DNA of 64,000 bases from Nitrospirota bacterium (GCA_016212105.1 JACRHJ010000046.1:30136-94135), one strand, 5' to 3'; counted from the stretch's first letter, positions 29,494 to 64,000 are shown. Made by a program: numbers and translations. The notes: generated from the sequence alone by a model not told the origin.

Positions 29494-29578
29494 GACAGGC
29501 GATAAAGGATTACGAGATATACGGAACTGAACTTTCTGAGTTTTGAAGTTAACTTGTTAAGAGGCGAGGGAGGCTGGG

Positions 29579-35563: not shown

Positions 35564-35576
35564 GTCGTAGGGAGAA

Positions 35577-35607
35577 CCCCCTGGAGGCCGGTAACGGCCT
35601 CCAGGGG
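35577..35607 (+). terminator. strong stem-loop (cccctggaggccg-gtaa-cggcctccagggg) after cytochrome 2; no U-tract
   Basis: It is a perfect 13-bp stem. It is related to the stem-loop after cytochrome 3 (42241..42267), sharing the gaggccg-N3-4-cggcctc core. It may be an attenuator or an RNA-stability element rather than a full terminator. Confidence 0.4.
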
Positions 35608-35623
35608 TGAACTTATTCAGGTC

Positions 35624-35652
35624 TTGGGTATTGGCCGAAAATGTGCTATATT
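35624..35652 (+). promoter_or_regulatory. candidate extended -10 sigma-70 promoter (TTGGGT-N17-TGcTATATT) for the second giant cytochrome
   Basis: The extended -10 element aTGtGcTATATT lies at 35642..35652, about 120 nt upstream of the ATG at 35776. Confidence 0.3.
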
Positions 35653-35775
35653 CGGCCTTGTCCCTAGCCCTGAAAAGTGCGGACGCGGGGAGAAACTCCG
35701 CGTCCTTCTGGTTGCGTTATTCAATACGAGACCTTATATTTAATAGATATAGATTTTCCGCACACGGAGGAACCG

Positions 35776-47805: not shown

Positions 47806-50800
47806 CTCGGCTCCTCCGGCATACCCGCCACGGTAGAGATCATGCCCTTCGTATCCACTTTCCTTATCAGGTTGTCGTCCTGTATATACATGTTGTCCAT
47901 AGCGTCGAACTGTATCCCGACGGGTTTTATCAGGCGGGCCTCGGTCGCGGGGCCGCCGTCTCCGGTGTACCCGCACGAACCCCTGCCGACGACCGTGCTG
48001 ACAATGCCGTCAGCGGTTATCTTGCGTATGCGGAAGTTGCCCGTGTCCGTGACGAACACCTCGCCCAAAGAGTTTACCTCGATGTCCACCGGGTCGCGGA
48101 AGGCCGCGGTGGCCCCCGGCCCGTCCGACGTGAAGCCGGACTTGCCCTTGATGCCGGCGATTAGAGTGCAGTTGTATTCCGGGTCTATCCTGTAAATGCA
48201 ACCGCCGTCGATTATGTAGATGTTACCCGCCTTGTCCACTGCCATGCTGCCAACGGGGACGACCGGCCTTCTCTGGTCGCCCGGGTAGTAGCGGCTTATG
48301 CCGTCCATGTAGAGCCTGTCCGCTCGGCGGTCCTTATCGACTATCTGGTCCGCCTTTTTGAAGCAGTCGCCGGACCTGACGATGACCGAGGATATGGTCC
48401 CCTTGGCGTCTATCTTTCTGACCCTGTCGCCACCGTTCATATACAGCTCACCGGCGGGTGAGAAGTACATGGACCCGCCCCCGGAGATCTTTGCGGCCGT
48501 CGCCGGGCCGCCGTCTCCTGATATGCCCTCCGATTCCTCCCGCCCGGCCACGGTCGAGATTATTCCTTTGCCGTCCACCATTCTTATGAGTCGGCCGTCG
48601 GTGAGGTAGAGGTTGCCGGAGCGGTCGCATGCGAGCTGTTTCGGCCGTTTCAGGCAAGTCTCGATTGCTCTGACATTTTCTTCTACTATCCCACCGCATC
48701 CGCAGCCTGCATAACCAAGAAGCCAGCCGCCCGGCCCGACCTTCCAGACCTTGTAAGGTGTACCGAGGTCCTCGGCAATGAATATGTTCCCGGCCGGGTC
48801 GACGGCAAACCCTCCGATACGCATTGTGGCCTTGGTCGCCTGCGTACCGTTTACAATCTTGCTTTCCCGGAACTCGCCGCCAGCGAACAGGCTCATCCTG
48901 CCGTCCCCGTCCATCCTCCAAACAGATTGATATCCCAGATGGAAGACACCTTGATCGACAATGTATGACAGGGACGATTCCATGCCGTTTCGGACATCCG
49001 CTATGTTTCTCGTCCTGCCTGACGGTTCGATCTTCAGTATCCTGCATTCCTGATATTCGGTGGTGTACAGGTTCCCGTCGTCGTCCACTGTGACTGATGT
49101 AGGTTTAAACCGGAGGTCCAGCGCAGACGGCAGGCCGCCCTTGTACTCTGGGTGCGCCTCGAAGTCCTCGAATTTACCTCCACCCGCTACTGTCGTAATG
49201 ATGCCGTTATTGCCGACCTTCCTGATGCGGCCGTTCTCCTTGTCTGCAATGAACATGTTGCCGAGCATGTCCAGTGAGACGGCCACTGGGAAGTTGAGGC
49301 TTGCGAGGGTTGCCTGGCCTCCGTCTCCCGCGATGCGCCCCACATACTCGTACCGGCCGTAATGCTTCTCCTTTGTCATAAAGCCGTCACCGGCGACGGT
49401 ATTTATTATCCCCTTCTTGTCTATCACTCGGATGCGGTGGTTGTTCGTGTCCGCTATGTACAGGTTACCGCGGGTATCCATCTTGATGTCGGACGGTCGG
49501 TTCAGCAGTGCGAATGCGGCCGGCCCGCCGTCTCCGAGCGGGACCAGCGCCGGGTCTGCCCCTCTTTCTTTCAGCGCGTCCTTGTGCAGGCCTCCTGCGA
49601 ATGTCGTGATTACGCCGTCCGTGTCCACCATCCTTATAGTATTGCCGTCTATGAAGTACAGGTTGCCTTCACTGTCCAGAGCCGCATCTTTCGGCTCGCC
49701 CAGCCTCGCGCGCAGGGCGTCGCCGCCGTCCCCGCAGTACCCCTGTAAACCGTTACCTGCTATCACGTACGCGCGCCCGTCTTTATCGAGCTTTACAATC
49801 CGGAACTTTCTGCCGTCGACGATGTAAGAGTTGCCGTTCTTGTCCATCGCAAAGCCGCTTGGGTACTCTATGGTCGACAGAAGCTTCAGGCTATCGAGTT
49901 TTGTCGGATTAAGGTTTCTTTCTACAGGTTTGGTCAGGTCCGCAAGCGTAAGTCCCGTACATGGCTCGACAATCGTGGCCGGGTCTTTATAGTCTGGTGT
50001 ACCGTTACCAGCGACAACAGCAATTCTAGCGTATGAATTATCACTGCCGAGCCTAAGCAGCCGGCTCCGCCTCTGCACTGCCTCGCGCACATCATTATTA
50101 TCGGCAGACTGAAAATGGATCTGCCCGAATCTATCGACATAGCCTGGCCAGCTCTGCTGGTTGTATGGATATTCTACATGTACTTCATTGACGGTTATTG
50201 TTCTAACAAGGTCCGGCCTTGATATACGGTTCATCGGTACGGTCATCCTTCCGGCGGTTTCCAGTCTCATCACCGTGTGGCTTGTTGGAAGGGAAAAATA
50301 TAAAGCATCCTTGTTGTCCAGCGCGATATAGAACCTGGATTTCTTGTATTCGGTTCCATTATTTAACTTCGTTGTAGAACTGTTTTCCACAAGAGCTAAT
50401 GTCAATATGTCATGTCTTGTCAGGACCCTTACGCAGTGGTTGCCGAAGTCCGCTAAGTAGATGTTTCCTGATGAGTCTACGTCAATGTCGCTAATCCAGA
50501 GGTGATCAATCGTGCCGCTGTAAAGAATGGTGGAGATTATCCCTGCTTTATCCACTTTCCGGATATTGTCGCCGCAGGCAATATACAGGTTGCCGCCGGA
50601 GTCAAGGGCGATGTCTTTCACCCATCCGATAGCTGCCAGGGTAGCCGGCCCGCCGTCACCGCTTGAACCTTTGCTGCCGTCTCCCGCAACGGTGCTGATT
50701 ATTCCGTTGAGGTCTATTTTCCTGACGCGGCTGTTTCCTCCATCTCCAATGTAAATATTTCCCTGACTGTCAACTACTACGCCCTCAGGGCTGTTAAGCT

Positions 50801-51284
50801 CAGCATATAACGCCGGCCCACCGTCGCCGGAATATTTGCTGGGGGAAACGAAGTAATTTAGCCCCGCGATAGGTGTATAATTGCCGTTCGCGTCTATTTT
50901 GCTGATCATATTATTCAGGCTGTCAGCTATGTAGATATTTCCGGAACTGTCCACCGCAATATCTTCCGGATTGTACAATACCGTTGATAGATACTGACTT
51001 TCTCCTCTTGCTTCTTTTTCTGCCTGATAGTGAGGCGCTTCCAAGGTTGTGATAAACCCTTCCTTGTCCACCTTGCGGATGAGGTTATTGTCCGTATCTG
51101 CAATGTACATATTGCCGGCATTGTCGAAGGCTATGCCGTGCGGGTTGTTGAGGCTTGTCTTGGCGGCCTCGACCAGCCTTAGGCTGGCGTAAGGGTCCTT
51201 GACCGCGGTTGACTGTACCGGGCAGCAGGCGGTGAATGCCAGTACTGTAGATATTAGGATTGCTGCAACCGTAAGTCGCGTCAT
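47802..51284 (-). CDS. NHL-repeat beta-propeller protein, 1160 aa (probable lipoprotein)
   Basis: The N-terminus is AILISTVLAFTAC. It has multiple NHL repeats (GNMYIADTDNNLIRKVDKEGFITT..., GNLYIADTNNHRIRVIDKKGIINTVAG). Confidence 0.75.
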   Translation of the reverse strand: MTRLTVAAILISTVLAFTACCPVQSTAVKDPYASLRLVEAAKTSLNNPHGIAFDNAGNMYIADTDNNLIRKVDKEGFITTLEAPHYQAEKEARGESQYLSTVLYNPEDIAVDSSGNIYIADSLNNMISKIDANGNYTPIAGLNYFVSPSKYSGDGGPALYAELNSPEGVVVDSQGNIYIGDGGNSRVRKIDLNGIISTVAGDGSKGSSGDGGPATLAAIGWVKDIALDSGGNLYIACGDNIRKVDKAGIISTILYSGTIDHLWISDIDVDSSGNIYLADFGNHCVRVLTRHDILTLALVENSSTTKLNNGTEYKKSRFYIALDNKDALYFSLPTSHTVMRLETAGRMTVPMNRISRPDLVRTITVNEVHVEYPYNQQSWPGYVDRFGQIHFQSADNNDVREAVQRRSRLLRLGSDNSYARIAVVAGNGTPDYKDPATIVEPCTGLTLADLTKPVERNLNPTKLDSLKLLSTIEYPSGFAMDKNGNSYIVDGRKFRIVKLDKDGRAYVIAGNGLQGYCGDGGDALRARLGEPKDAALDSEGNLYFIDGNTIRMVDTDGVITTFAGGLHKDALKERGADPALVPLGDGGPAAFALLNRPSDIKMDTRGNLYIADTNNHRIRVIDKKGIINTVAGDGFMTKEKHYGRYEYVGRIAGDGGQATLASLNFPVAVSLDMLGNMFIADKENGRIRKVGNNGIITTVAGGGKFEDFEAHPEYKGGLPSALDLRFKPTSVTVDDDGNLYTTEYQECRILKIEPSGRTRNIADVRNGMESSLSYIVDQGVFHLGYQSVWRMDGDGRMSLFAGGEFRESKIVNGTQATKATMRIGGFAVDPAGNIFIAEDLGTPYKVWKVGPGGWLLGYAGCGCGGIVEENVRAIETCLKRPKQLACDRSGNLYLTDGRLIRMVDGKGIISTVAGREESEGISGDGGPATAAKISGGGSMYFSPAGELYMNGGDRVRKIDAKGTISSVIVRSGDCFKKADQIVDKDRRADRLYMDGISRYYPGDQRRPVVPVGSMAVDKAGNIYIIDGGCIYRIDPEYNCTLIAGIKGKSGFTSDGPGATAAFRDPVDIEVNSLGEVFVTDTGNFRIRKITADGIVSTVVGRGSCGYTGDGGPATEARLIKPVGIQFDAMDNMYIQDDNLIRKVDTKGMISTVAGMPEEPR

Positions 51285-51360: not shown

Positions 51361-52107
51361 TCAGAAGCGATAACCATCGTAACCTCTCTCGAACTCCCTG
51401 TCGGAAAGGCCTGGGTTGACCTTGAGATCTTTGTAGCCGTAGCTCTCAAGCAGCTCTCCCGACCAGCCGTAGACCATTATCTTCACCGGCAGGCGCAGGG
51501 CCTGGTCTTGCCATATCTCGGACCGTCGGGCATAGAAAACGCCCTTGCCGTCCGCCGGGGCCTCTACAACTATCAACCTGGCCGGCCTTCCGAACACTGT
51601 ACTGTCCATTACGGTTATCGTCCCTACACCGGCCTTCCTGGCCTTGCCGACCTCCCCGGTCACGATGTCCAGCATCCTGCCGATGCCGACGTCCGTGACC
51701 GGATGCCTGTTGCCTCTCATTGCGACCTTGCCGTCCGGGTCCAGGTTCATGACAATAGACCGGGTAAAGCCTCCGCCATGGGCAACCAGCCTGTTGCCGT
51801 TGGTACCGGTGGCGTACAGCAACTCGCGGCCCTCCCCAGGGCCCGGCAGCCATTTCATATAAATCTTGAACGGCTTCTTGAACTTCAGCTCGATGCTTTC
51901 GGCCGGAAGGAGTTTGCCGTCCACGCGTTCCTGTTTCTGGAAGTTCGCGGTATAGTCGGTCACGCGGGCATACGCCTCGCGCATCCGGTCGAGCTCCCTG
52001 ATGGCATCCTTGTCGAAAGACGCGCATGGCGAGACGCCGGGCCACAGGGCAAGGACTGCCGAGGCTGCGAGCAGGGCACGCATAATATAACTCATCATTT
52101 TATCCAT
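51361..52107 (-). CDS. DUF1571/LolA-like outer-membrane lipoprotein-sorting-like protein
   Basis: It has a signal peptide (ALLAASAVLALWPGVSPCA) and is about 230 aa, resembling the LolA-like fold family. It overlaps the upstream radical SAM gene by 13 nt. Confidence 0.45.
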   Translation of the reverse strand: MDKMMSYIMRALLAASAVLALWPGVSPCASFDKDAIRELDRMREAYARVTDYTANFQKQERVDGKLLPAESIELKFKKPFKIYMKWLPGPGEGRELLYATGTNGNRLVAHGGGFTRSIVMNLDPDGKVAMRGNRHPVTDVGIGRMLDIVTGEVGKARKAGVGTITVMDSTVFGRPARLIVVEAPADGKGVFYARRSEIWQDQALRLPVKIMVYGWSGELLESYGYKDLKVNPGLSDREFERGYDGYRF

Positions 52108-53273
52108 TCCATCAGCACGGGCAGGCCGTCTCCCCGGCAGCTCTTGATGATGTCGACCGCATCCGTCAACGACACTGGACGCGGGACGTTAGGGAAACCG
52201 TTCATATGCGAGGCGAGGCAGTGCCGCGACGGCGCTTCGATATTCGCGGAGAGACTGTCGAGGACCTCGCCGAGCCCCTCTGCGTACACGTTGCCGAACG
52301 AGACCGGGAGGAAGTCGCACGGGTAGACATCGCCGCCCGCGTTAATGTAGATAAAGGTATACCCGGCCTGGCATCCCAGGTAGTCCGGGCCTTCGAGCCG
52401 TGTCATTGTCGAGATGCGGACAGGAGCTCCTTTAATGCTCTGGCCGAGTCCCGGGTCGCGAAGCCTCATTTTCGTGTGTTCGGGAAGTTCTCTTGTTTTG
52501 GAACCTGTCCTGACCGGCATCGGGTCGAGGAGCAGTATCTCGTCCACACCGATGCTTCCGCAGAAGGATACGTACCGCTCCCATACGCCTTCGCTCAGCA
52601 ATTCCTCCGACGCGACCGCCTGCGCCGCCGTATGCACGCCGTATTTCTTGAACAGCCCCATAGCCCGGACGGCGTCATCAAAAGTGCCTGGCCGGTGCCT
52701 TGTATTGTCGTGCGACTCACGGTCGAAGTGGTCCAGGCTCACGAACGCCCGGCACAGTCCCGCACCTGCGAGCTGTGAGGCGCGGCCCGCGTCGAGCCCG
52801 ATGCCGGTAGTAAAGAGCGTGGTACATACCTCTTCGCCGCACAGCCCGACAATATCCACGAGGTCATCGCGAAGCAGGGGCTCGCCGCCTGTGAATGCGA
52901 CGCATGCTGTGCCCGCGTCCTTCAGCTCGGCAAGCAGCCTCCCGACCATCTCGAACGTCGGCTCGACGCGGCCAGAGGGAATGTTCGAGCACCGCTCGCA
53001 CCCGCAATCGCAGCGGTCTGTGAGGGAGATATGCGCCATGACCGGGACGCGCTCACCATGGGATACCCTTTTAAGGGAGTTCAGGTATCGGCCGAACGCG
53101 CGGCTCCCGACTGGCGGGGCCAGGTGGTGTATGTCTATCCCGTATCTCGTCCGAATCGGACGCGCGTCCCTCATGGACCTCCACATGGCGCGTGATATTG
53201 AAGGAGGCAGCGTCCATGCCTCGCGATGCCAGAGTGTGGCGAGCAGCATCCGTACGCGCCATGCGGTGTTCAT
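52095..53273 (-). CDS. radical SAM enzyme with C-terminal SPASM/twitch domain
   Basis: The radical SAM cluster is CDCGCERC (CX3CX2C), followed by GGEPLL. The SPASM start is GCQAGYTFIYINAGGDVYPCDF. Its ATGA start overlaps the aminotransferase stop. Confidence 0.8.
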   Translation of the reverse strand: MNTAWRVRMLLATLWHREAWTLPPSISRAMWRSMRDARPIRTRYGIDIHHLAPPVGSRAFGRYLNSLKRVSHGERVPVMAHISLTDRCDCGCERCSNIPSGRVEPTFEMVGRLLAELKDAGTACVAFTGGEPLLRDDLVDIVGLCGEEVCTTLFTTGIGLDAGRASQLAGAGLCRAFVSLDHFDRESHDNTRHRPGTFDDAVRAMGLFKKYGVHTAAQAVASEELLSEGVWERYVSFCGSIGVDEILLLDPMPVRTGSKTRELPEHTKMRLRDPGLGQSIKGAPVRISTMTRLEGPDYLGCQAGYTFIYINAGGDVYPCDFLPVSFGNVYAEGLGEVLDSLSANIEAPSRHCLASHMNGFPNVPRPVSLTDAVDIIKSCRGDGLPVLMEWIK

Positions 53274-54613
53274 AACGGCCGCCCGAGGACGCTCTTCATA
53301 AATGCGGACCCAGCCGCCGAGCCGAACGACGGGCAGGCAGTTAGCACCGTATCAAGCGTGGACGTAAACCTGTCCACATGCTCAGGACAGGCGACAAGCG
53401 GGGGCTCGGCCCGGAGGACGTTCGGCGAGAGAGTGCACGAATGGGACACGATGCCGTGGTCGCGCAGCAGGAGGGCGGCAATGACATGCGTGAACAGCCC
53501 GTCCCGCGCCCACGCTGGTACGGCCCTGGAAAGTACTCCCTCCGGCCGCGTGAACTCTATCCCCACGAGCAGCCCCTCTCCGTGGATGTCTGTGATTACG
53601 GTATGGCGGCGCTTGAGGCCGTCGAGTAACCCGGCAAGCCGGACGCCCATCTCGCGCGCGTTGTCCGGAAGCCTTTCGGCCTCGACTATACCGATAGTTT
53701 CAAGTCCCGCTGTCATCGCAAGGTGGCCGCCGGCAAACGTCGATGCGGTGAGCGTGCAGCGTTCCGGCCCGGTGAACGCGCGCTTCCATACGTCGCCGGT
53801 CATCAGCGTCGCCGCGACGGGGACCATGCCGCCCGAAAGCGCCTTGCCGACAACGAGCGCGTCGGGGATTACGTCGGCGAAGTCCGTGGCGAACATTCGG
53901 CCTGTCCGCCCGAGCCCGGTCTGTACCTCGTCTATGATTAACAGGCAGCCATGCCGGGCGCATATCCTGCTCGCCTCCTTCAGGTATCCTTCGGCAGGGA
54001 CTCGCATACCTCCCTCGGCCTGTACCGGCTCTACGATGAACGCGGCAGGCTTTAGCTTGCCGCAGGTGGCTTCGAGCGCGTCCAGGTCGTCGAACGGTAT
54101 GTGAGCGGACCACGATGGCAGCGGCCCGGCGAGGGCGCGTCTCTTCTCGTCGCCCATCAGCGGCAGCGTCCCGGTGGTCTGGCCATGGTAGCCGCCATCG
54201 CACGCAAGTATGACCTGTCTCCCGGTTGCCGCCCGCGCCGCGCGTACTGCGGTGTCGACCGCCTCCGCCCCGGAGTTGGCGAAGCTCACGCGGTCAAGCG
54301 CAGGGTGGGTGAGCCGGGTCAGTCTCTCGGCAAGCAGCCCGGCGGACAGCGGCGCGTCTACATTCAGCATCGAGGCCTGCCCATCCGCGAGGGAGGCCGT
54401 GAGTCTTTCGATGAGGCGCGGGTGGTTGTGGCCTATGTTGTGGACTCCGAATCCGGCGAGGAAGTCGGTATACACCCTGCCGGTATAGTCGGTCAGCTCC
54501 ATCCCGCGTGCACGGACGAACATACGGCCGTAGTCGAGCGCCTCGAGCATCCGGACAAGGTCCGGGTTGACGAACTTCCGGTATAGCTCGTGCGCCTTTT
54601 CCAGCTCGTTCAT
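53270..54613 (-). CDS. class III PLP-dependent aminotransferase (acetylornithine/omega-aminotransferase family)
   Basis: The protein is 447 aa. It carries the aminotransferase class III motif (...LIIDEVQTGLGRTGRMFA...). The PLP-binding lysine sits in GKALSGG. Confidence 0.8.
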   Translation of the reverse strand: MNELEKAHELYRKFVNPDLVRMLEALDYGRMFVRARGMELTDYTGRVYTDFLAGFGVHNIGHNHPRLIERLTASLADGQASMLNVDAPLSAGLLAERLTRLTHPALDRVSFANSGAEAVDTAVRAARAATGRQVILACDGGYHGQTTGTLPLMGDEKRRALAGPLPSWSAHIPFDDLDALEATCGKLKPAAFIVEPVQAEGGMRVPAEGYLKEASRICARHGCLLIIDEVQTGLGRTGRMFATDFADVIPDALVVGKALSGGMVPVAATLMTGDVWKRAFTGPERCTLTASTFAGGHLAMTAGLETIGIVEAERLPDNAREMGVRLAGLLDGLKRRHTVITDIHGEGLLVGIEFTRPEGVLSRAVPAWARDGLFTHVIAALLLRDHGIVSHSCTLSPNVLRAEPPLVACPEHVDRFTSTLDTVLTACPSFGSAAGSAFMKSVLGRPL

Positions 54614-56088
54614 CGCTTCAGCCTCGATACGGCGTCCGGGTAGATACTCTCCCAGGCCGCGTACCCCCCGTAGACCACGCGCACCCTAGGATGGCCGGCG
54701 TTGGCGAGCCGGTATCCGGCCTGGAACGAGAATATCCCCGTCCCGCACATGAGCACAACCTCTCTGTCCCAGGGTATCTGCTTGAAGTACCGCTCGAAGT
54801 ATATGTGCGACCACTCCTTCGCGCCCGGTATGCCTTCCTTCAGCATGCGCTCGTAAGGGAAACGGAGGTCTACGAGGAAGGTATCCGGCGACTCGATACG
54901 TTCGGCCGTCAGCTGTTGCGGGTCCATGTATGCGAACCCTGCCGGGTCGTGGGCGAGAACCTTTCCGAGTACCTTCAGGACGTAGCGCATGTCGGCCTCG
55001 GCCGTCGTCCTGCCCATGCTCATCCTTATCGAGGACAGCGCCTCCGCCTCGGACAGCCCCATGCCGATGAGCACATGCGATGGTTCGACGCGGTCTGCGG
55101 TACAGGCCGAGCCGATGGAGACGCAGACCTCATAGCAGTCGAGCCCGGCGAGAATGCGAATGTTCTCCCGGCCGGGGAACGTGAGGTTAATCGTCCCCGG
55201 GAGCTGAGAACCGGCGGGGGCATCGTTAACTATAATATCCGGGACAAGACTCCTGAGACCTTCGAGGAAATACTCGCGGAGCCTTGCAAGCCGTGCGAAA
55301 TCGCCCTCACGGCGCTCCGCCGCGAGCAAGGCCGCCCTGGCGAGTCCGGCAATCTGGTGCACACCCTCGGTCCCGGTGCGGAGCCCGCGCTCCTGGTCGC
55401 CTCCGCTTATGAGCGGGATGAGCTTCGCGCCGTCCCGGACGAAGATCGCGCCCGCGCCTTTCGGACCGTTTATCTTGTGCGCGGAGAGCGTGAGGTAGTC
55501 GCATCCGATGTCGTCAACATTTACACCAATCTTCCCGAACGACTGGACGGCGTCGGTGTGGAAGGGTATGCCCGCATCCCTGGCTATTTTGCCGATATCC
55601 TCGACAGGCTGCAGCGCGCCGGTCTCGTTGTTCGCGTGCATTACGGAAACGAGTATCGTGTCAGGACGTATAGCGGCCTTCACATCGACCGCCTTGACCA
55701 GCCCGTCCCGTCCCGCTGGCAGATAGGTTACGTCGCCGCCAGCGAGCTGCACCTGCTGGCACGCGCCGAGCACGGAGTCATGCTCTATGGCCGTAGTGAT
55801 GATGTGCCCCCGCCTGCCAGCGGCCTCGAAAACGCCCCTGATTACCGTGTTGTTGCCCTCGGTCCCGCCGGAGGTGAAATATATCTCCGAGGAGTTGCAC
55901 CCGAGTATCCCTGCAACCGTGTCCCGCGCGGTCTCCACGATGCCGCGCGCGTCCCGGCCCCTGGTATGAAGCGAAGACGGGTTGCCCCAGCGGCCTCGAA
56001 GGATTCGTGACATCTCCTCCGCGACTTCTTTTGCGACTGGTGTAGTCGCGTTGTGGTCCAGGTAAACCTGCCTTGGTATGTGGAACAT
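54610..56088 (-). CDS. cysteine desulfurase (NifS/IscS class V aminotransferase) fused to a C-terminal rhodanese domain
   Basis: The NifS N-terminus is YLDHNATTPV and the PLP lysine is in SAHKINGPKGAG. The active-site Cys loop is SIGSACTADR. The C-terminal rhodanese domain has the catalytic CGTG motif. Its ATGA start overlaps the aminotransferase gene. Confidence 0.8.
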   Translation of the reverse strand: MFHIPRQVYLDHNATTPVAKEVAEEMSRILRGRWGNPSSLHTRGRDARGIVETARDTVAGILGCNSSEIYFTSGGTEGNNTVIRGVFEAAGRRGHIITTAIEHDSVLGACQQVQLAGGDVTYLPAGRDGLVKAVDVKAAIRPDTILVSVMHANNETGALQPVEDIGKIARDAGIPFHTDAVQSFGKIGVNVDDIGCDYLTLSAHKINGPKGAGAIFVRDGAKLIPLISGGDQERGLRTGTEGVHQIAGLARAALLAAERREGDFARLARLREYFLEGLRSLVPDIIVNDAPAGSQLPGTINLTFPGRENIRILAGLDCYEVCVSIGSACTADRVEPSHVLIGMGLSEAEALSSIRMSMGRTTAEADMRYVLKVLGKVLAHDPAGFAYMDPQQLTAERIESPDTFLVDLRFPYERMLKEGIPGAKEWSHIYFERYFKQIPWDREVVLMCGTGIFSFQAGYRLANAGHPRVRVVYGGYAAWESIYPDAVSRLKR

Positions 56089-56097
56089 CTCACCGCC

Positions 56098-56730
56098 TCA
56101 GTAGATGTATGGTATGAACCTGTAACGGACGTCCGACATGTACTCGCGGTATCCGGACTTAGTCACGAGGAACCGCTCCTCGAGGACTGCGCGGTATACG
56201 TAGGCCGCGGACGATATTACGAACAGCGCGAATACCGCGGGTGCCGGGTGGCTGATGAGATACCCGGCGCGGAGCAGGATGTCCGTCCCGTACATGGGGT
56301 GGCGTACCACTGAGTACAGGCCCGTCCGCCTGACCTCCCGGTACGCGATGAGTATCCCGAAGCTCCGGCCGAGGTTGATGAGCGATATGAGCCCGAGCAC
56401 GTTCGCCGTCATGATGACCGTTTTCGAGACTGTAAGAGCGGCCTCCCCGGTGCTCTCCGCTGCGCCTGTAAAGAACACACCCGAGAAAAACGCCGCGAGC
56501 GCTACACCCTGATGAAGGACATTCCTGTCTACTGTGATGTGGTCTTTCCTGACGAGGATAAGCACGACCATGACGAGGTTCTGGAGCGTGAACGCGGCCT
56601 CGATGTAGTCGAACCTGCCCTCCCGCCATGCGGTGTACGCCTGATAGCCGAGCCAGCCGGCGAGGTTAACGAACAGGTATAAGTTGAACGCCTTCTGGCC
56701 GTGTCTGTCTATGAACTCGCGGAGCGTCAT
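56098..56730 (-). CDS. isoprenylcysteine carboxyl methyltransferase (ICMT/PEMT) family membrane methyltransferase
   Basis: The ATG at 56730 overlaps the upstream gene by 4 nt, and the track ORF is longer. It has 4-5 TM helices and the family motif VRHPMYG...EERFL. Confidence 0.6.
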   Translation of the reverse strand: MTLREFIDRHGQKAFNLYLFVNLAGWLGYQAYTAWREGRFDYIEAAFTLQNLVMVVLILVRKDHITVDRNVLHQGVALAAFFSGVFFTGAAESTGEAALTVSKTVIMTANVLGLISLINLGRSFGILIAYREVRRTGLYSVVRHPMYGTDILLRAGYLISHPAPAVFALFVISSAAYVYRAVLEERFLVTKSGYREYMSDVRYRFIPYIY

Positions 56731-58130
56731 CCCATAAACCTTGGGGTGTTGTTTCGGACGCAGGCCGGGAGGACGCGGCCGTCCGGCTGTGGGTAGCCCT
56801 GGCAGCAGCGCCTGACGCGGGCGATGTCGAACGTGTCCCTGTCCTGGAAGGCGTGTATGAAGATGGACTTGACCTTGCGCTCCATCATCGTGAACGCGGC
56901 CCTCGGGTCGAAGCAGCAGGCCGGCGCCTCCGACATCTCGCGCAGTATGCCGCGCAGCGCGGAGAGTACCGCCAGGCTCTCCGGCGCGGCGGCCACCGGG
57001 CCGGACCACAGGTCGTACACCATCTGCCTCAGGCGCGCGTGCTCATCGGGATCGAGCCCGTATACAACGCGGTTCGCGAGCGAGTCGAGCATGCCGTCCA
57101 TGTCCGCGAGCCTGGCGAAGGCCACCGCCTGCCCGCCTACGGTCATAAGGTAGAACGCGAGCGAGAAGCAGAGCGGGTGGCTGCACGGGAGCGGTATGAA
57201 GTCCTCGCGCGATACGAACGGTACGCCGGCCTCACCGATGAGCCGCGTGATGTCCGGTATGGTGAGCCGTCGCTCCTTGCCCGGCATGTCCTTAGCGCGG
57301 CCGGTGTAGGCGAGCGGCTGGACCATCAGGCTCACGATATTATCGTAACCGAAGAGGCAGCCGAGTATCTCCGGGAAGCGGTCGTCGTTTATGCCCGTTG
57401 CGGCCGTCATCACGAGCGAGGTAGTTACGTCCGCATCCTTCAATGTATCGAGTATCTCGCGCTTCTCGTACGCAAGTGGCCTTCCGCGAAGCTTTACGCA
57501 GACCTCGTCCGAGAACCCGTCGAGCTGCAGGGACACCACTACGTTTCTGGCCTTCAGCTCGCTCACGAGCGCTGGGTTGCGCAGAAGCCTCAGCCCGTTT
57601 GTCGAGATGCTTACACGCACTATCGCCTCGCGCGCGAGTGCCATGTCCACGATACGGAGGATGTCCTGGTGCAGGAGCGGTTCGCCGCCGGAGATGTTAA
57701 GGAGGTCTATCCTGCCTTCGGCCGCTACGAGCCTGTCGAGTATGCCGCCGAACTCATCCGGCGTCATGTCCCATGCCGAGCCGGCAGGCCCGCCAGACTC
57801 GTTGATGCAGATGGGGCATGCGAGGTCGCAGCGGGAGGTTATCTCTATAATCGGCATGCAGAGGTGCTGCTCGTGACGGGAGCAGTATCCGCATCCGTCC
57901 GGGCAAGGCGCGGACGCGTCTCCGTGCGCGGCCATCGGGACGGATGCGGGTTTGACGTACCTGAGCGTGCGCATATAATCGTCCGCGTCCGAGCGTATGA
58001 ACGCCCGCGACTCCCCGTGCTCCGGGCAGAACTTCAGCATGTGCACGTTCCCGCCGTCCTCGACGACCTTGGCCGGTGCTGGTTGTCCGCACTCCGCGCA
58101 GACAGACTGTGTAACAGTTATCAACCTCAT
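56727..58130 (-). CDS. radical SAM enzyme with N-terminal Cys-rich zinc-ribbon-like extension (paralog of 60885..62351)
   Basis: The ATG at 58130 gives MRLITVTQSVCAECG. The extension reads CX2C...CPEH then CPDGCGYCSRHEQHLC, and the radical SAM cluster is CDLACPIC, followed by GGEPLL. The conserved C-terminal tail is KSIFIHAFQDRDTFDIARVRRCC...DGRVLPAC. The track ORF is extended to 58538. Confidence 0.75.
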   Translation of the reverse strand: MRLITVTQSVCAECGQPAPAKVVEDGGNVHMLKFCPEHGESRAFIRSDADDYMRTLRYVKPASVPMAAHGDASAPCPDGCGYCSRHEQHLCMPIIEITSRCDLACPICINESGGPAGSAWDMTPDEFGGILDRLVAAEGRIDLLNISGGEPLLHQDILRIVDMALAREAIVRVSISTNGLRLLRNPALVSELKARNVVVSLQLDGFSDEVCVKLRGRPLAYEKREILDTLKDADVTTSLVMTAATGINDDRFPEILGCLFGYDNIVSLMVQPLAYTGRAKDMPGKERRLTIPDITRLIGEAGVPFVSREDFIPLPCSHPLCFSLAFYLMTVGGQAVAFARLADMDGMLDSLANRVVYGLDPDEHARLRQMVYDLWSGPVAAAPESLAVLSALRGILREMSEAPACCFDPRAAFTMMERKVKSIFIHAFQDRDTFDIARVRRCCQGYPQPDGRVLPACVRNNTPRFMG

Positions 58131-58132
58131 TA

Positions 58133-59158
58133 TCAGTATCTCCTGACGGAGCTGTAGAACTCGCGGAGCTGCCTGATGAGCGGCCTCTTTGTGATGCTCT
58201 CGGCGAAGCCCCTGCATGACGTCCAGCACTCGGAGCATGCCGAGGTGCGCTGCAGGTCCTCGAGTTTGGCGCGGATGTCGTCCATGTCCTCGATCAGTAT
58301 GTTCCCGGCCGGGCTGTCGAGCATCTCTGTGCACCTCGCCACACGGCCCATGTTGTCTATGTTCATCATCAGCCGTCCGGCCTGGCATCTGCCGACCCCG
58401 CCGGTCTCGATCGCCTCGTCGAGCCGCTCTATGTACGACGTAAGCGTCACGAACTCCGGGTATCTCTTCTTGAGCGAGAGCAGGCGTGCCGCGACCTTGT
58501 CCTCCGGGAGCCTGCGCGTCTTCACGCCTCTGTTCCACGAGTACAGGCTCAGCATGTACGTCACGCCGAGCTTGCGCGAAAGCAGCAGCAGCGGCTCTAC
58601 CTCATCGAGGTTGTCGTCCATCAGGACGCTTATCATGTGGACGCGCCTCCGGTTGTCCCTGCGCGCGCGGTTGAGTGTGTCGAGCGCGGAAACAGCACGC
58701 TCCCACGCCCCGTCCATGCCGCGCATCGTGTCGTGCCGCTTCGGGTCGGCATAGTCGAGTGAGACGGATATCTCCTGTAAACCAGCCACGGATAGCTCCT
58801 CGGCGAGATCCGGTGTCACGTGCCAGCCGTTAGTGATGAGTATAGGGAAGTGGCCCTTCGCGTTCAGTATCCGTATTATATCAGGAAGGTCTTCCCGGAT
58901 GAGCGGCTCACCGCCGGCAAGCGATATGATAAACGTTCCGTAGCGTGCAAGCTTGTCGCCGATAACACGTATGTCGTCGAGTGACAGCTCTTCTTCCGCC
59001 TTGTGTTTCGTCTTCCAGAAGTCGCAGATGCTGCACCGGAACTGGCAGCGGTACGTCACCTGCAGGTTGCAGTAGATGAGCCTGCGCGTGGCGAAGCCCG
59101 CGAGCAGGCTCCCGCAGCGCCTCTGGTAGTGGAGTTCTTGTTTTATGGAATATAGCAT
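58133..59158 (-). CDS. radical SAM enzyme with SPASM/twitch-like C-terminus
   Basis: The ATG at 59158 gives MLYSIKQ. The radical SAM cluster is CQFRCSIC, followed by GGEPLI. The C-terminal Cys motif is CQAGR...RCTE...CSECWTSC. Its stop abuts the start of the downstream gene. Confidence 0.75.
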   Translation of the reverse strand: MLYSIKQELHYQRRCGSLLAGFATRRLIYCNLQVTYRCQFRCSICDFWKTKHKAEEELSLDDIRVIGDKLARYGTFIISLAGGEPLIREDLPDIIRILNAKGHFPILITNGWHVTPDLAEELSVAGLQEISVSLDYADPKRHDTMRGMDGAWERAVSALDTLNRARRDNRRRVHMISVLMDDNLDEVEPLLLLSRKLGVTYMLSLYSWNRGVKTRRLPEDKVAARLLSLKKRYPEFVTLTSYIERLDEAIETGGVGRCQAGRLMMNIDNMGRVARCTEMLDSPAGNILIEDMDDIRAKLEDLQRTSACSECWTSCRGFAESITKRPLIRQLREFYSSVRRY

Positions 59159-59270
59159 AATGATAAAGGATATAACCCCGCCTTCTTGTAAGAAGGCGGC
59201 CCAAGAACTTTTGGGCTGCACCAGCGGATATGCGTGAAACGCTACGCAATAGGCCGGAGGCGGCATAAAA

Positions 59271-59311
59271 GTTTTCGGGCCGCCCTTTTACAAAAGGGCG
59301 GGACTTGTTGG
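59271..59311 (+). promoter_or_regulatory. Palindromic ~40-nt motif copy inside the radical SAM operon (gttttcgggccgcccttttacaaaagggcgggacttgttgg)
   Basis: It is a perfect 10-nt inverted repeat, ccgccctttt AC aaaagggcgg. A second hairpin (ccccgccttct-tgta-agaaggcggc, 59177..59200) lies next to it, between two minus-strand genes. Confidence 0.4.
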
Positions 59312-59319
59312 CAGTGCCG

Positions 59320-60330
59320 TTATCTTCTCCCCGCGAACCGGGAGTCCTCTCGCATAGCCGAAACCGGGTGTGCCTGGAACATCGTCAGTCCCATGTGGCA
59401 GAATATGTGGCACCTGCCGGAGCAGTCCGGTATGCCGCCATAAGACTTACGCGCGGTCGTGAGCGCTGCCTCGTAGCCGCCGCGCTCCAGCACGCTCTCG
59501 TCCGCCCGCTTGAACTCCAGGCACGGGTAGTAGAGCCTCCCGTCCGGCCTTATGGCAGGCATGAGGAGGGGTGCGCACCTGAACTCGCGGAAGTATCTGA
59601 TCCCGTCGAGATACTCAGGTACTCCCAGCACTCCGGACCGCGTCTTCTTGGCATCGAGGACCTTCGACATCAGCCGGTCGTAGACAGGGTTGTCTCTAAG
59701 CGCCGGGTTCACGGACCTCCCGGTTATATCCGGCGATATATGGAAACCGAGCCTGTTTTCGAGCGCAAAACCGAGGACGTCAGCGACGTCGTCGAGGTTG
59801 GCGGGCGTCGCCACTGCGCTTAAAACCAGTGCGGTACCCGCATCCGCCGCCGTACGCACCGAGTATTCGAGGCTGTCGAGTATCCCGCGCGCCGCTGTTT
59901 TATTACCGGTGAGGGCCGTAAGTCTGTCCTCGTCGAGCGAGTCCACGCTCAGTACGAGGACGTTGGCCAGCCCGATTATTTCTTTACGTGACTCGAGCCC
60001 GATGCCCTTCGTGTTGAGGACAGTCGCCATCCCTGCGTGTCTTGCATGGGCGAGCACTTCCTCGATGTCGTCCCTTTCGAGCGGCTCTCCGCCGGTAATG
60101 TCGAGCGTGTCCGCGGAGCGGGCAAGCATCCCGACAAGCCTTTTAGCGTCTTCGGTCGACAGCTCATCCACGACATCCTCGCGGAAGCTTGCGCCATCGC
60201 CGTCGGAGCAGTATGCGCACCGGAGCCCGCAGCGGTGGGTTATGTAGTACGAGAAAAGCAGCGGCCGGGACGGCCTGCGCCCCACGGCGACGGAGATCAG
60301 ATTAAGGGCGTAGTTGAGCGCCGAGCCCAT
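59320..60330 (-). CDS. radical SAM enzyme with SPASM/twitch-like C-terminus
   Basis: The radical SAM cluster is CGLRCAYC, followed by GGEPLE. The C-terminal Cys motif is YYPCLEF...CSGRCHIFCH. Confidence 0.8.
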   Translation of the reverse strand: MGSALNYALNLISVAVGRRPSRPLLFSYYITHRCGLRCAYCSDGDGASFREDVVDELSTEDAKRLVGMLARSADTLDITGGEPLERDDIEEVLAHARHAGMATVLNTKGIGLESRKEIIGLANVLVLSVDSLDEDRLTALTGNKTAARGILDSLEYSVRTAADAGTALVLSAVATPANLDDVADVLGFALENRLGFHISPDITGRSVNPALRDNPVYDRLMSKVLDAKKTRSGVLGVPEYLDGIRYFREFRCAPLLMPAIRPDGRLYYPCLEFKRADESVLERGGYEAALTTARKSYGGIPDCSGRCHIFCHMGLTMFQAHPVSAMREDSRFAGRR

Positions 60331-60331
60331 G

Positions 60332-60892
60332 TCAGTCTTTACCCTTTAGGCTCTTTGCGGGCACGCCGCCGACGGAGTCATCGTCCGGAACGTCCCGGTT
60401 CACGAAGCTGTTGAACCCGACGTTCGCGCGCTCGCCTATGGTTACCCCGCACCGTACGGTCGAGAAGCCGCCTAAAACGGAATGCTTTCCTATGCGCACG
60501 CGGCCAAGCCTGAACTCCTTGACCGAGTACTCGTGCGTCATGACGCGCGAGCCGATACCGAGCAGGACGCCGTCCTCCAGCTCGATGAGCTGCGGGTACA
60601 GCGGGTCGATGTACGTCTCGGGCGATATGTACACGTCCCTGCCTATCCTCGCGCCCAGCAGCCTGAGCAGGGATACCTTTACGGACGATAAAGGCACGGC
60701 GTTCACGAACCACATGACGACGAGACGTATGCCGATGACGAGGTCCGGGCCGTGGCCTGTGAATATTGTCTCGCAGACGCAGTACCGCTCAGAGCGCGGT
60801 ACGACGAAAGGCTCGGAGCGGTCGCCCGCGAGCCACTCAGTGAGCGCGGCCCTGTGTCTGGCTACAGCCGACTTGTCTTCCGGGCTAAGCAT
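60332..60892 (-). CDS. hexapeptide-repeat (LbH) acyl/acetyltransferase
   Basis: It has left-handed beta-helix repeats (IGRDVYISPETYIDPLY...IGSRVMTHEY...IGKHSVLGGFSTVRCGVTIGERANVG). Confidence 0.7.
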   Translation of the reverse strand: MLSPEDKSAVARHRAALTEWLAGDRSEPFVVPRSERYCVCETIFTGHGPDLVIGIRLVVMWFVNAVPLSSVKVSLLRLLGARIGRDVYISPETYIDPLYPQLIELEDGVLLGIGSRVMTHEYSVKEFRLGRVRIGKHSVLGGFSTVRCGVTIGERANVGFNSFVNRDVPDDDSVGGVPAKSLKGKD

Positions 60893-62351
60893 GGAACCTC
60901 TCGTCCTTCATCCGGTGGAAGAGGTTATAGGTGCAGGCCGGTATCAGCCTGCCGGGCTCGGAGGGGACAAGGTCCGGGCAGAGCATCGCGCGCGCGCAGT
61001 CGAAGCTGTCCTCGTCCATGTGCGCGTGCACATATACCGTCCTGACGGAGGACTCCGCGAGCCGCTGCCGCATGAAAGGGCTTATCCTGCCCTCGTCAGG
61101 GTACAGCCGCTTTATCAGCTCCCGGAAAGCCTTCATGTGCACCTCGTCGCCCTTCGCGTAGAGCTCATTGATTATCTCGCGGAAGAAGTCCGCCCTGTCG
61201 TCAAGACGCATCAGGTAAGAGTCCGCCATGAACGACATGAGCGTCTCGGCCGGCGCGAACCGCGCGAACGGGTGGAACTTCCTGCCGGACTTCATCATGT
61301 AGCAGGTGAGGTAGCATAGCGGGTGCGCGGACGGCCTGGGGAGGAAGTCCGTGAACTCCAGCATACCGCCTGAGCCCGCCGCGACGAGCTTCGCGGCCTC
61401 GTCCACGGGTATGTGCGCGCGGCCCTCGACCGTCCCGCCGCCCTGGCCGGTGTAGGTCATCGTCTGGACTATCAGGCTAAGTATGCTGTCGTTCTCCAGC
61501 ATCAGGCCGAGTATGCCGCTGGTGGCGTCCTCGTTCACGCCGCGCATCATGACGTTCAGGAGCGTTATCCTCGCGCCCGCGCGTGTCAGGTTGTCTATAG
61601 CGCGGAGCTTTGTATCGACCACGTCCGCACCGTGCATGACCTTCGACGCCGCAGGGTCGAACGTGTTGAACGACAGGTTCACGTATACTCCAAGGTCGGC
61701 GATCCTTCTGCACAAGTCCATGTCGCGCGAGAGACGGAGCCCGTTGGAGTTCATCATGACGCGCCCGACCTCCTGGCGTTTGCAGCAGGCGAGTATCCCG
61801 AGTATGTCCGGGTGGAGCGCCGGCTCGCCGCCGGTAATGTCTATGAGGTCCACGCTGCCGGACGACTCGATAATCCAGTCCACGGTGCGGCGCATCTCGT
61901 CCACCGGCATGTAGTACTTCCTGTCCTGCCGGTTGTACGTGAAGCATATAGGGCAGCGCATCTCGCAGTCGTTCGTTATGGATATGACAGGGAGCTGACA
62001 GGGAGATGCGTGCCATGTGCACGGGCCGCAGTCGTGCGGACAGCCGCGCATCGGTGGATGCGAATGGCCGGCGGGCGAGCTGTCGGCGAACGGCCCCTGA
62101 CAGCTACTGAGGTACCAGTCCACGTCCGAGGCTATCATGGCGGGCTCGCCCTCGCCGCACCTGCATAACGACTGCTGCCAGACCTTGCCGTCCCGGAAGA
62201 AGACGCGCGCGGGCACGACCTCGCGGCAGGAGCGGCAGACGCCCCGGACCGTTGTGAAGTAAGTGTAGTCCCTGGTCTCAAGCACCGGCGTATATCTCCC
62301 GCCAGAGCGTCTCGCGTCCGGATGCGTCTTCCATGTCATGCAGGTCCGCAA
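60885..62351 (-). CDS. radical SAM enzyme with N-terminal Cys-rich zinc-ribbon-like extension (paralog of 56727..58130)
   Basis: The extension reads CRSC...CRCGEG then CPHDCGPCTWHASPC, and the radical SAM cluster is CEMRCPICF, followed by GGEPAL. The C-terminal tail is RTVYVHAHMDEDSFDCARAMLC...GRLIPAC. The start is uncertain because the 5' end overlaps the upstream hotdog gene. Confidence 0.75.
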   Translation of the reverse strand: MRTCMTWKTHPDARRSGGRYTPVLETRDYTYFTTVRGVCRSCREVVPARVFFRDGKVWQQSLCRCGEGEPAMIASDVDWYLSSCQGPFADSSPAGHSHPPMRGCPHDCGPCTWHASPCQLPVISITNDCEMRCPICFTYNRQDRKYYMPVDEMRRTVDWIIESSGSVDLIDITGGEPALHPDILGILACCKRQEVGRVMMNSNGLRLSRDMDLCRRIADLGVYVNLSFNTFDPAASKVMHGADVVDTKLRAIDNLTRAGARITLLNVMMRGVNEDATSGILGLMLENDSILSLIVQTMTYTGQGGGTVEGRAHIPVDEAAKLVAAGSGGMLEFTDFLPRPSAHPLCYLTCYMMKSGRKFHPFARFAPAETLMSFMADSYLMRLDDRADFFREIINELYAKGDEVHMKAFRELIKRLYPDEGRISPFMRQRLAESSVRTVYVHAHMDEDSFDCARAMLCPDLVPSEPGRLIPACTYNLFHRMKDERFHA

Positions 62352-62736
62352 GCGTGAAAGATAATGTCCCGGCGGCGACTTGCGCGCCGGATATGGCCGC
62401 CACTGAGCATTCGGCTATAAAAGAGCCTTTAGACACCTCTACTGGACGCACCTCGATTATCAGCGCATCGCCAATCCCCGGCTTGCCCGGCGATGCGGCG
62501 AACGTCATCTCCGATACTCCATCCAGCAGGCATGTCTTCTCGAACCGCGTACTTGCGGAAGCCAGCCAGCGTGCGGCGGATACGCAGCACTCCATGACAA
62601 GGCTCACCGGGAAGGCCCCCTTCAGGCCGAACGGCTTCAGAAGGCTGTACTCCTCGAGGCTGACCGTCTTCCTGCACCTGACGGCCTTCCATGACTCGAA
62701 GCTCTCTACTCTGTCAGTGAACCTCCAGCGCATCAT
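62278..62736 (-). CDS. hotdog-fold dehydratase (FabA/FabZ-like)
   Basis: The protein is 152 aa. Its N-terminal RWRFTDRVESFE resembles the FabZ LxDRV region. Its position in the operon is ACP-KR-DH. Confidence 0.45.
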   Translation of the reverse strand: MMRWRFTDRVESFESWKAVRCRKTVSLEEYSLLKPFGLKGAFPVSLVMECCVSAARWLASASTRFEKTCLLDGVSEMTFAASPGKPGIGDALIIEVRPVEVSKGSFIAECSVAAISGAQVAAGTLSFTLADLHDMEDASGRETLWREIYAGA

Positions 62737-63446
62737 ATACCGCCGTTCACGTGTATGCTCTGGGCGTTTATGTACGATGCCCTGTCGGAGGCGAGGAAGA
62801 GGGCGACCTCCGCAACCTCCTCCGGCTCTCCGGGCCTGCCTGCCGTGCAGTAGTTGAGGTACTCCTTCATCTCTTTCTCGGGCACGAGGGTGCCGACGCC
62901 CTTGGACAAAAGCCCCGGCACAATCTCGTTCACGCGGATGCCGAAGCGCGCGAGCTCCATGGCGAGCGCGGTCGTGAAGCCGGACACGGCCGCCTTTGCC
63001 GCGGCGTAGTGCACCGGCACCTCGAGGAGCCTGTGGCCCGCAATCGAGCCGATGTTGATTATGACGCCCGAACGGCGCGATATCATGGAGCGGGCCGCCT
63101 CCTTGCTCGCGAGGAACATGGGCTTGAGGTTCGCGGCGATGACCTCGTCCCAGTCCTCCTCCTCGATGAGCGCGAACGGCATCACCTGCGTCCGGCCGAC
63201 GGTGTTCACGAGGACGTCTATGCCGCCGAAACGTCCCGTAACGTCCTCGACCAATCTCGCAACACCCGCGCCTTTTGTCAGTTCGGCCTTGAACGCCAAG
63301 GCGCCCGTCACGGCTTCGAGTTGCCGTGCGGCCTCCTCGCCGTTCCGGTACGTGAACGCGACGGAGTATCCCTCGCGGGCGAACGCGCGGACGACCGCGC
63401 CGCCCACCGCTCCGCTCCCTCCGGTGACAAGCGCGGTCTTAGGCAT
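62733..63446 (-). CDS. short-chain dehydrogenase/reductase (FabG-like 3-oxoacyl-ACP reductase)
   Basis: The NAD(P)-binding motif is TGGSGAVGGAV. The catalytic Y...K is YAAAKAAV. The C-terminal motif is SIHVNGG. Confidence 0.8.
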   Translation of the reverse strand: MPKTALVTGGSGAVGGAVVRAFAREGYSVAFTYRNGEEAARQLEAVTGALAFKAELTKGAGVARLVEDVTGRFGGIDVLVNTVGRTQVMPFALIEEEDWDEVIAANLKPMFLASKEAARSMISRRSGVIINIGSIAGHRLLEVPVHYAAAKAAVSGFTTALAMELARFGIRVNEIVPGLLSKGVGTLVPEKEMKEYLNYCTAGRPGEPEEVAEVALFLASDRASYINAQSIHVNGGI

Positions 63447-63837
63447 GTCCTGCCTCCTTTAGCCTGGCGACAATGTTGACGAACGTCGCAACTCGGAACG
63501 TGCGCGGAAGCGCGGCGGCATGGAGCCCGTCGTGGAGCTCCTCCGGAGGCACCTCCGGGAGCGCGGCCCTTAGCTCTGCGAGCGCCTCCGGCGTGTATAT
63601 ACCGTCAACCTCGAAAGCCGCGCCGCCGAGCCTCTCACGCGCGCGGCGCTCAATGTCCCTGGGTGAAATCTTTATACTGAACCGTTGCTCGAGCTGGAAT
63701 ACCAGGTCGAGCAGGTCGAGCGAGTCCGCGCCGAGGTCGCCGATAATCCTCGCGTCCTCAGACACGCAGGATGCGTCCATGTCCAGCACCTTCGACAGGC
63801 TCTCGCGTACTCCGGCCTGTATCTCATCTCTCGTCAT
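63439..63837 (-). CDS. acyl carrier protein with C-terminal extension
   Basis: The phosphopantetheine attachment motif is DLGADSLDLLDLV. The protein is 132 aa, longer than a canonical ACP. Confidence 0.65.
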   Translation of the reverse strand: MTRDEIQAGVRESLSKVLDMDASCVSEDARIIGDLGADSLDLLDLVFQLEQRFSIKISPRDIERRARERLGGAAFEVDGIYTPEALAELRAALPEVPPEELHDGLHAAALPRTFRVATFVNIVARLKEAGHA

Positions 63838-64000
63838 CTATTATCCTCGTATAGTCGTCAACAGGTTTTCTCTCCGGGGCAGCGGGAGTCTCTGCCGGGT
63901 ATCCGAGCGCGACCAGGCAGACTATTTCGAAGCGTCCTCCGACACCGGCAATCTTCTTCAGCCTGTCTCCCGCCGCGAGCGGGCCGGTCAGGCAGCATGT
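63823..64000 (-). CDS. partial gene, possibly nitroreductase-family C-terminus (runs off window end)
   Basis: Minus-strand translation ends ...IVCLVALGYPAETPAAPERKPVDDYTRIIDDER*, and an LGYP ending is typical of nitroreductases. It overlaps the ACP start by about 15 nt. Confidence 0.25.

Follow-up and report, generated by a model that had tools for sequence, protein, structure and literature searches.

Two genes on the minus strand of a 64,000 nt stretch of DNA from a Nitrospirota bacterium (GCA_016212105.1, JACRHJ010000046.1:30136-94135; the whole stretch is hereafter called the window) encode radical S-adenosylmethionine (SAM) enzymes, designated rSAM_A and rSAM_B (A and B for short). By sequence the two are paralogs and, by sequence and predicted fold, members of the superfamily that contains the archaeal tetraether synthase GDGT-MAS/Tes. 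They form a conserved pair inside a syntenic operon that carries acyl carrier protein (ACP) and ketosynthase (KS) genes. The best explanation of these observations, held as a whole with moderate confidence, is that A and B are two anciently diverged paralogs within this superfamily, which would form a carbon-carbon bond on the operon's acyl chain by way of an auxiliary iron-sulfur cluster.

Two members of the GDGT-MAS/Tes superfamily

Gene B lies exactly where an earlier reading of the window's sequence (the original prediction) had placed it. Gene A is also real and on the minus strand, but its start had been set too far upstream. The longest open reading frame (ORF; 60885..62351, 488 aa) begins with TTG, but a database protein identical to A is 466 aa long and the relatives of A are about 470 aa, so the start was assigned to the GTG at 62285, giving an 8 nt overlap with the upstream gene. 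The predicted paralogy was borne out by BLASTP, which aligned the two proteins across 457 columns with 29% identity (E 2e-62). Both match the Pfam domain Radical_SAM (PF04055; 84.6 and 86.3 bits for the two proteins, gathering threshold 29.5), while Zn_ribbon_HMPTM was matched above its threshold of 27 by B (53.5 bits) and just below it by A (24.3 bits). Pfam scans found no SPASM domain in A or B (among the proteins scanned, only that encoded at 52095-53273 has one), and no B12-binding domain in A, B or the two accessory radical SAM proteins of the operon, rSAM_C and rSAM_D.

The zinc ribbon domain is named after HMPTM, and some homologs carry matching names at JGI, which would make A and B pterin C-methyltransferases (7,8-dihydro-6-hydroxymethylpterin dimethyltransferase). 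This is highly improbable. The structural study of MJ0619, the GDGT-MAS protein, could not corroborate pterin activity and showed lipid coupling instead (PMC9433317); the operon is without pterin or methanopterin genes, and its context is that of fatty-acid synthesis.

Among solved structures, GDGT-MAS (7TOL) is the best sequence relative of both proteins (E 1.4e-47 for B and 8.5e-37 for A), and structures other than 7TOL and 7TOM matched over the radical SAM core only. AlphaFold (AF2) models were built from alignments of relatives, with mean predicted local distance difference test (pLDDT) values of 72.5 for B and 78.4 for A. When searched with Foldseek, these models matched 7TOL and 7TOM over their full length, with template modelling (TM) scores of 0.72–0.77 and E of about 1e-28 (against 7TOM, 0.77 for A and 0.74 for B), while the next matches covered the core only (TM 0.35–0.40). 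A and B have the same full-length fold, four cofactor sites, domain order and size as GDGT-MAS (MJ0619).

The resemblance to tetraether synthases that had been predicted therefore holds at the level of the superfamily, but not at that of the family. A and B are only 24–25% identical to GDGT-MAS, and fall below the cut-offs of both relevant NCBIfam models. Against Tes (NF045702; cut-off 450), B scored 217.9 and A 162.9. Against TrsS, a radical SAM (seleno)protein of the same superfamily (NF045646; cut-off 490), B scored 250.9 and A 166.2, and this was the top-scoring curated model for both. None of 15 further proteins from various clades (five more distant B-like proteins and 10 superfamily representatives) passed either cut-off. 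The five B-like proteins scored 247–268 against TrsS, and the protein nearest to it (P0342, 454.6 bits) is distant from A and B and adjoins the Tes clade. When 1.84 billion cluster representatives were scanned, 329 relatives were retrieved at E ≤ 1e-30, and 97 full-length representatives were placed with A, B and GDGT-MAS in a rough neighbour-joining tree, which has no support values; in it the A clade, the B clade and the Tes clade with GDGT-MAS are all separate. The Tes scores, the separate clades and a His at the position of the labile Met439 of Tes rule out A and B as Tes orthologs. Their scores likewise rule them out as TrsS, and neither gene has an in-frame TGA.

The superfamily also includes fusion proteins. 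Members P0300, P0341, P0349, P0350, P0357, P0359 and P0373 are joined to Lgt (diacylglyceryl transferase), a MobA-like NTP transferase (with or without HD), an AMP-binding domain, a class I (CMAS-like) methyltransferase or DUF5714. These partners suggest several distinct, undescribed pathways, and the Lgt, AMP-binding and class I methyltransferase fusions suggest lipid or acyl substrates.

Metal sites and conserved motifs

Of the four cofactors of GDGT-MAS, one is a rubredoxin-like Fe, two are auxiliary [4Fe-4S] clusters and one is the radical SAM cluster (PMC9433317). The 7TOL sequence was rebuilt from HMMER alignments, its numbering reproducing the published ligands, and was aligned with relatives of A and of B, 120 in each case (Table 1).

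Table 1. Metal ligands of GDGT-MAS and the corresponding residues of A and B. Residues C338, C455 and C470 of GDGT-MAS were chosen by alignment to conserved Cys of A and B; their numbers are not from PMC9433317.
Site	GDGT-MAS	A	B
Rubredoxin-like Fe	C9/C12/C33/H36	C17/C20/C41/C43	C11/C14/C35/H38
[4Fe-4S]N	C73/C77/C80/H83	C82/C86/C89/H92	C76/C80/C83/H86
Radical SAM cluster	C98/C102/C105	C107/C111/C114	C101/C105/C108
[4Fe-4S]C	C338/C455/C470 + labile M439	C324/C436/C451 + H420	C321/C442/C457 + H426

The multi-site Cys layout noted from the window sequence is real, and its extra Cys are conserved. Among the relatives of each protein the ligand positions are 95–100% conserved, the exception being C43 of A (83%), so that every GDGT-MAS ligand column lies between 83 and 100%. 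Because all four GDGT-MAS sites are retained, four metal sites would be expected by homology in each protein, in line with the three or four originally predicted. The radical SAM motif CX3CX2C is invariant in both families and GGEP is also kept in both; since they retain these two motifs, A and B look catalytically competent.

The N-terminal auxiliary motif of A and B is CX3CX2C-xx-H. The prediction of a CX3-4CX2C...C site was correct as to the cluster motif, but in the solved homolog a His, rather than a Cys, serves as the fourth ligand. After that His comes one more invariant Cys (C91 in B, C96 in A). It is missing in the MJ0619 clade but common in the superfamily, and was rejected as a trait specific to A and B. 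In the ribbon, A differs from GDGT-MAS in having a fourth Cys rather than a His. Also conserved are the Cys of the HPLC motif (C321 in B, C324 in A) and a C-terminal tail with a His (H426 in B, H420 in A) and Cys residues (C442/C443/C457 in B, C436/C451 in A). The motifs proposed earlier for this layout are present, but A departs from their consensus, with CRC, RTVYVH and PGR in place of CPxH/C, K(S/T).. and DGR.

In one alignment the Met439 column of Tes holds His in both A (H420) and B (H426), while a second alignment puts the His two columns off. Which residue stands here depends on the clade, with Met in the Tes/TrsS-like clade, His in those of A and B, and Lys or another residue elsewhere in the superfamily. 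The swap of the labile ligand (Met, His or Lys) between clades gives a handle on cluster-mediated carbon-carbon versus carbon-sulfur bond formation.

A conserved gene pair and its proposed role

A scan of species-representative genomes returned 80 loci. Of 62 loci in which 5 kb or more is available upstream of the B-like gene, 58 also have an A-like gene, and the pair invariably sits in one syntenic operon. The loci come from Planctomycetota, Victivallales (Lentisphaerota), Elusimicrobiota, Riflebacteria, Leptospiraceae, Nitrospirota, Bacteroidota, Fibrobacterota, Firmicutes, Myxococcota (including two complete Sorangium genomes), Desulfovibrio, Azonexus, Zoogloeaceae, Sedimenticolaceae, Thiomargarita and others. 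In a tblastn matrix, one gene order was kept across more than 10 phyla: dehydratase DH1, chain-length factor (CLF), KS, ketoreductase KR1, nitroreductase-fold flavoprotein, ACP, ketoreductase KR2, dehydratase-like DHl, A, (hexapeptide acyltransferase, rSAM_C, rSAM_D), B, PEMT-family methyltransferase and NifS-rhodanese. KR2 lies immediately upstream of A in 61 of 82 loci, rSAM_C was found in 37 of them and the NifS-rhodanese fusion in 31.

Variants of this arrangement occur in distant proteobacterial and Bacteroidota loci (L054, L057, L060, L063, L066, L067 and L084), which have a DUF1571-like gene between A and B and NifS-rhodanese at the front of the operon. Azonexus carries a minimal version (NifS-rhodanese, DH, KS, flavoprotein, ACP, KR2, A, hexapeptide transferase, B, rSAM_D, PEMT, rSAM_C), followed by unrelated genes. 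No description of this operon was found in the literature searched.

A Planctomycetota-like contig (L003, 13803-17641) has, on the opposite strand, a further Tes-like paralog of 468 aa, its third, adjoining a GH3-family acyl-amido synthetase and a 330-aa protein without a Pfam match. Another locus (L008, DYIT01000051.1) belongs to a metagenome-assembled genome (MAG) labelled Candidatus Kuenenia stuttgartiensis; the label looks wrong because the locus has 62% GC, far from the value of about 41% for Kuenenia.

The role proposed for A and B follows the analogy with GDGT-MAS. Each enzyme would have a mononuclear metal site of the rubredoxin-like kind and three [4Fe-4S] clusters: an auxiliary one in the N-terminal part, the SAM-cleaving one and a second auxiliary one in the C-terminal part, the last bound by three Cys and one exchangeable ligand. 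The two would act as paired tailoring enzymes in an operon that supplies its own type II fatty-acid/polyketide-like machinery. The 5′-deoxyadenosyl radical would take a hydrogen from an unactivated carbon of the ACP-made acyl chain, the carbon radical would be trapped on a sulfide of the C-terminal cluster, and a second radical would resolve the adduct into a new carbon-carbon bond, either by tail-to-tail coupling or by intrachain ring closure. Two paralogs could correspond to two distinct bond-forming events or to two substrates. Finishing and placing the lipid would then fall to the membrane acyltransferase, the PEMT-like methyltransferase and the DUF1571 protein, and NifS-rhodanese would meet the heavy Fe-S demand. 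A chain-coupling or cyclisation role, as first suggested from the neighbouring ACP, ketoreductase and dehydratase genes, is plausible in this context, and that a carbon-carbon bond is formed through the auxiliary cluster is the reading we consider probable.

Several points weigh against it. The Tes and TrsS scores are far under the curated cut-offs, and because the labile Met439 of Tes is a His in A and B, the chemistry of their C-terminal cluster could differ from that of Tes. The conserved NifS-rhodanese and the ICMT-family methyltransferase would also fit sulfur insertion. The substrate could be either ACP-bound or a membrane lipid, and the confidence of the AF2 models is no more than moderate near the loops that bind the clusters.

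Branched GDGTs (glycerol dialkyl glycerol tetraethers; brGDGTs) serve widely as palaeoclimate proxies, and the role of bacterial Tes homologs bears on who makes them. To our knowledge, these homologs have so far been counted in genomes without regard to gene context. Here, two deep Tes-like clades form an obligate pair in a self-contained operon of ACP, KS, ketoreductase (KR) and dehydratase (DH) genes across many phyla. The A and B pair with its ACP operon may, as a tentative suggestion, make a fatty-acyl lipid of an unrecognised and phylogenetically widespread class that is cross-linked, cyclised or bears sulfur. In that case, many 'bacterial Tes homologs' used as brGDGT markers in environmental surveys would belong to an ACP-dependent pathway and not to tetraether synthesis, and the carriers of the lipid would mostly be bacteria known from environmental metagenomes only. 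The operon can also be cloned and has cultured carriers (Sorangium strains; Victivallis vadensis MAGs), and so offers a system for Tes-type chemistry on bacterial acyl chains.

Bacterial Tes homologs have been noted before and proposed, without proof, as brGDGT synthases (PMC8941075; PMC11868695). A and B could accordingly be imagined as genuine bacterial tetraether or membrane-spanning-lipid synthases, which act on membrane glycerolipids and yield lipids of the diabolic-acid or brGDGT type. They share their superfamily and cofactor set with Tes, and the phyla that bear the cluster overlap the proposed anaerobic sources of brGDGTs. Such a function is nevertheless unlikely, as A and B are not placed within the Tes clade and do not reach the cut-off for Tes. 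They are bacterial, paired and set in an ACP-dependent, fatty-acid-type operon without glycerolipid or ether-lipid genes, whereas GDGT-MAS/Tes is associated with isoprenoid ether-lipid genes. Known producers of diabolic and iso-diabolic acid are mostly without Tes homologs, the confirmed bacterial coupling enzyme being Mss (PMC13159169; PMC13459092). Mss, from Thermotoga and Thermoanaerobacter, is likewise a radical SAM enzyme; it couples two fatty-acyl tails in the absence of oxygen and, compared with A and B by its description, is the precedent in bacteria for the chemistry proposed here. Its substrates are membrane lipids, it has not been reported in an ACP/KS operon, and its authors describe it as only remotely related to Tes. 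Caution is needed in surveys, as not every Tes-like match signifies tetraether potential.

In LipA and BioB, and in the split LipS1/LipS2 system, with which the A and B pair may be compared, a sulfide of an auxiliary Fe-S cluster reacts with a carbon radical of the acyl chain, and a cysteine desulfurase sustains turnover. A and B differ from LipA and BioB in fold beyond the core and in cluster motifs, so any likeness would be mechanistic only. By the logic of LipA, BioB and MiaB, the radical captured on the auxiliary sulfide would be retained, making A and B sulfur-inserting enzymes, with one sulfur per paralog as in LipS1/LipS2; NifS-rhodanese would then replenish the sulfur, and S-methylation of the product may be the task of the ICMT-family enzyme. 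The Tes mechanism itself runs through a C-S(cluster) adduct (PMC9433317; PMC13459092), the labile-ligand position is unlike that of Tes, the NifS-rhodanese fusion is recurrent, and the methyltransferase has a weak match to the ICMT-family thiol methyltransferase MddA. This match is marginal (E 0.0012), however, NifS may merely support Fe-S assembly for the four or five radical SAM enzymes, and a thiolated lipid is not known from these taxa. Sulfur insertion is accordingly doubtful as the function of the pair, and carbon-sulfur bond formation is rated less likely than carbon-carbon bond formation.

The operon also resembles aryl-polyene (APE) type II polyketide synthase (PKS) clusters and the anammox 'ladderane' candidate clusters. 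All combine in a single operon a dedicated ACP, a KS with a defective KS/CLF, genes for FabZ-like dehydratases and FabG-like reductases, and tailoring genes for radical SAM enzymes or methyltransferases. A and B might then cyclise a polyene from an APE-like type II PKS, through a radical cascade that closes rings, as hypothesised for ladderanes. This idea is in keeping with the KS/CLF pair, the two ketoreductases, an ApeI-like dehydratase accompanied by a His-less one and the lack of a canonical enoyl reductase, and genome mining has been reported to find clusters of the ladderane type in these same non-anammox phyla (PMC9902471). On the other hand, the operon KS is nearer FabF than polyene ketosynthases, the nitroreductase-fold protein could act as a reductase, and a polyene product is not known. 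The radical SAM enzyme of anammox candidate cluster I is B12-dependent (PMC13459092), which A and B are not, and that cluster has a phytoene-desaturase-like gene, unlike the present operon. APE clusters are without Tes-like enzymes, and only the present operon has paired Tes-like genes, the nitroreductase-fold protein and NifS-rhodanese. Polyene cyclisation is therefore considered improbable, and carbon-carbon bond formation on a fatty-acid-type chain is still preferred; the substrate, bond type and product given for A and B are those that we infer from homology and gene context.

Genes of the operon and other features of the window

The region from 51.3 to 64.0 kb of the window is one minus-strand operon, the genes of which are listed in operon order in Table 2. 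Most adjacent genes overlap by 4–8 nt, from the flavoprotein gene through to DUF1571, and a promoter/terminator scan of the operon found no convincing internal terminator. The operon extends past 64000; in longer contigs it starts with a FabZ/ApeI-like dehydratase (DH1), a truncated CLF-like KS, a FabF-like KS and KR1, followed by the flavoprotein.

Table 2. Genes of the operon within the window.
Feature	Coordinates	Strand	Basis
Nitroreductase-fold flavoprotein, 3′ end, cut at window edge	63824..64000	minus	translation; full gene at same place in related loci
ACP, 132 aa, C-terminal extension of ~55 aa	63439..63837	minus	PP-binding at residues 10-62
KR2, FabG-like short-chain dehydrogenase/reductase (SDR) ketoreductase	62733..63446	minus	profile matches
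DHl, FabZ-like hotdog protein without catalytic His	62278..62736	minus	weak FabZ match; alignment
rSAM_A, Tes/GDGT-MAS-superfamily radical SAM, 466 aa	60885..62285	minus	GTG start 62285; E 8.5e-37 to 7TOL
Hexapeptide-repeat acyl/acetyltransferase, N-terminal hydrophobic segment	60332..60892	minus	Hexapep
rSAM_C, accessory radical SAM, 336 aa	59320..60330	minus	profile matches
rSAM_D, accessory radical SAM, 341 aa	58133..59158	minus	start at Met37 of longest ORF, 58133..59266
rSAM_B, paralogous Tes/GDGT-MAS-superfamily radical SAM, 467 aa	56727..58130	minus	E 1.4e-47 to 7TOL
PEMT/ICMT-family integral-membrane methyltransferase	56098..56730	minus	profile matches
NifS-like cysteine desulfurase fused to rhodanese domain	54610..56088	minus	Aminotran_5 + Rhodanese
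Class III aminotransferase, accessory, in few loci	53270..54613	minus	domain scan, locus comparison
Radical SAM/SPASM protein, accessory, travels with aminotransferase	52095..53273	minus	domain scan, locus comparison
DUF1571 protein	51361..52098	minus	domain scan; between A and B in several distant loci

Homologs of the window ACP in related operons are 130–142 aa long. DHl was aligned in four sequences (the window and loci L002, L003 and L004), and in all four the His of the GHFP motif is replaced while the Glu is kept; DH1 keeps its His. This alignment makes DHl a probable non-catalytic partner or chain-handling subunit. The hexapeptide acyltransferase has weak similarity to heptaprenylglyceryl phosphate O-acetyltransferase and to WcaF, and rSAM_C and rSAM_D gave only generic matches, to SkfB, BlsE, PqqE and MoaA.

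Directly downstream of the operon are two large NHL/teneurin-type beta-propeller proteins of 749 and 1160 aa (45727-51284, minus strand), which are probably not part of the cluster because they are not conserved in related loci. Beyond them, at 43543-45426 (minus strand), a DUF6056/PMT_2-type membrane glycosyltransferase-like protein is fused to TPR repeats. The plus strand encodes, at 14810-18292, a Type ISP restriction-modification enzyme in one polypeptide of 1160 aa, with N6_Mtase and the Type_ISP_C specificity domain. Also on the plus strand, at 27841-42228, are three consecutive multihaem c-type cytochrome genes (550, 1994 and 2183 aa) that match Cytochrome_C7, Geobacter CxxxxCH...CXXCH and MtrC/MtrF-like domains, and point to a capacity for extracellular electron transfer in this Nitrospirota MAG.

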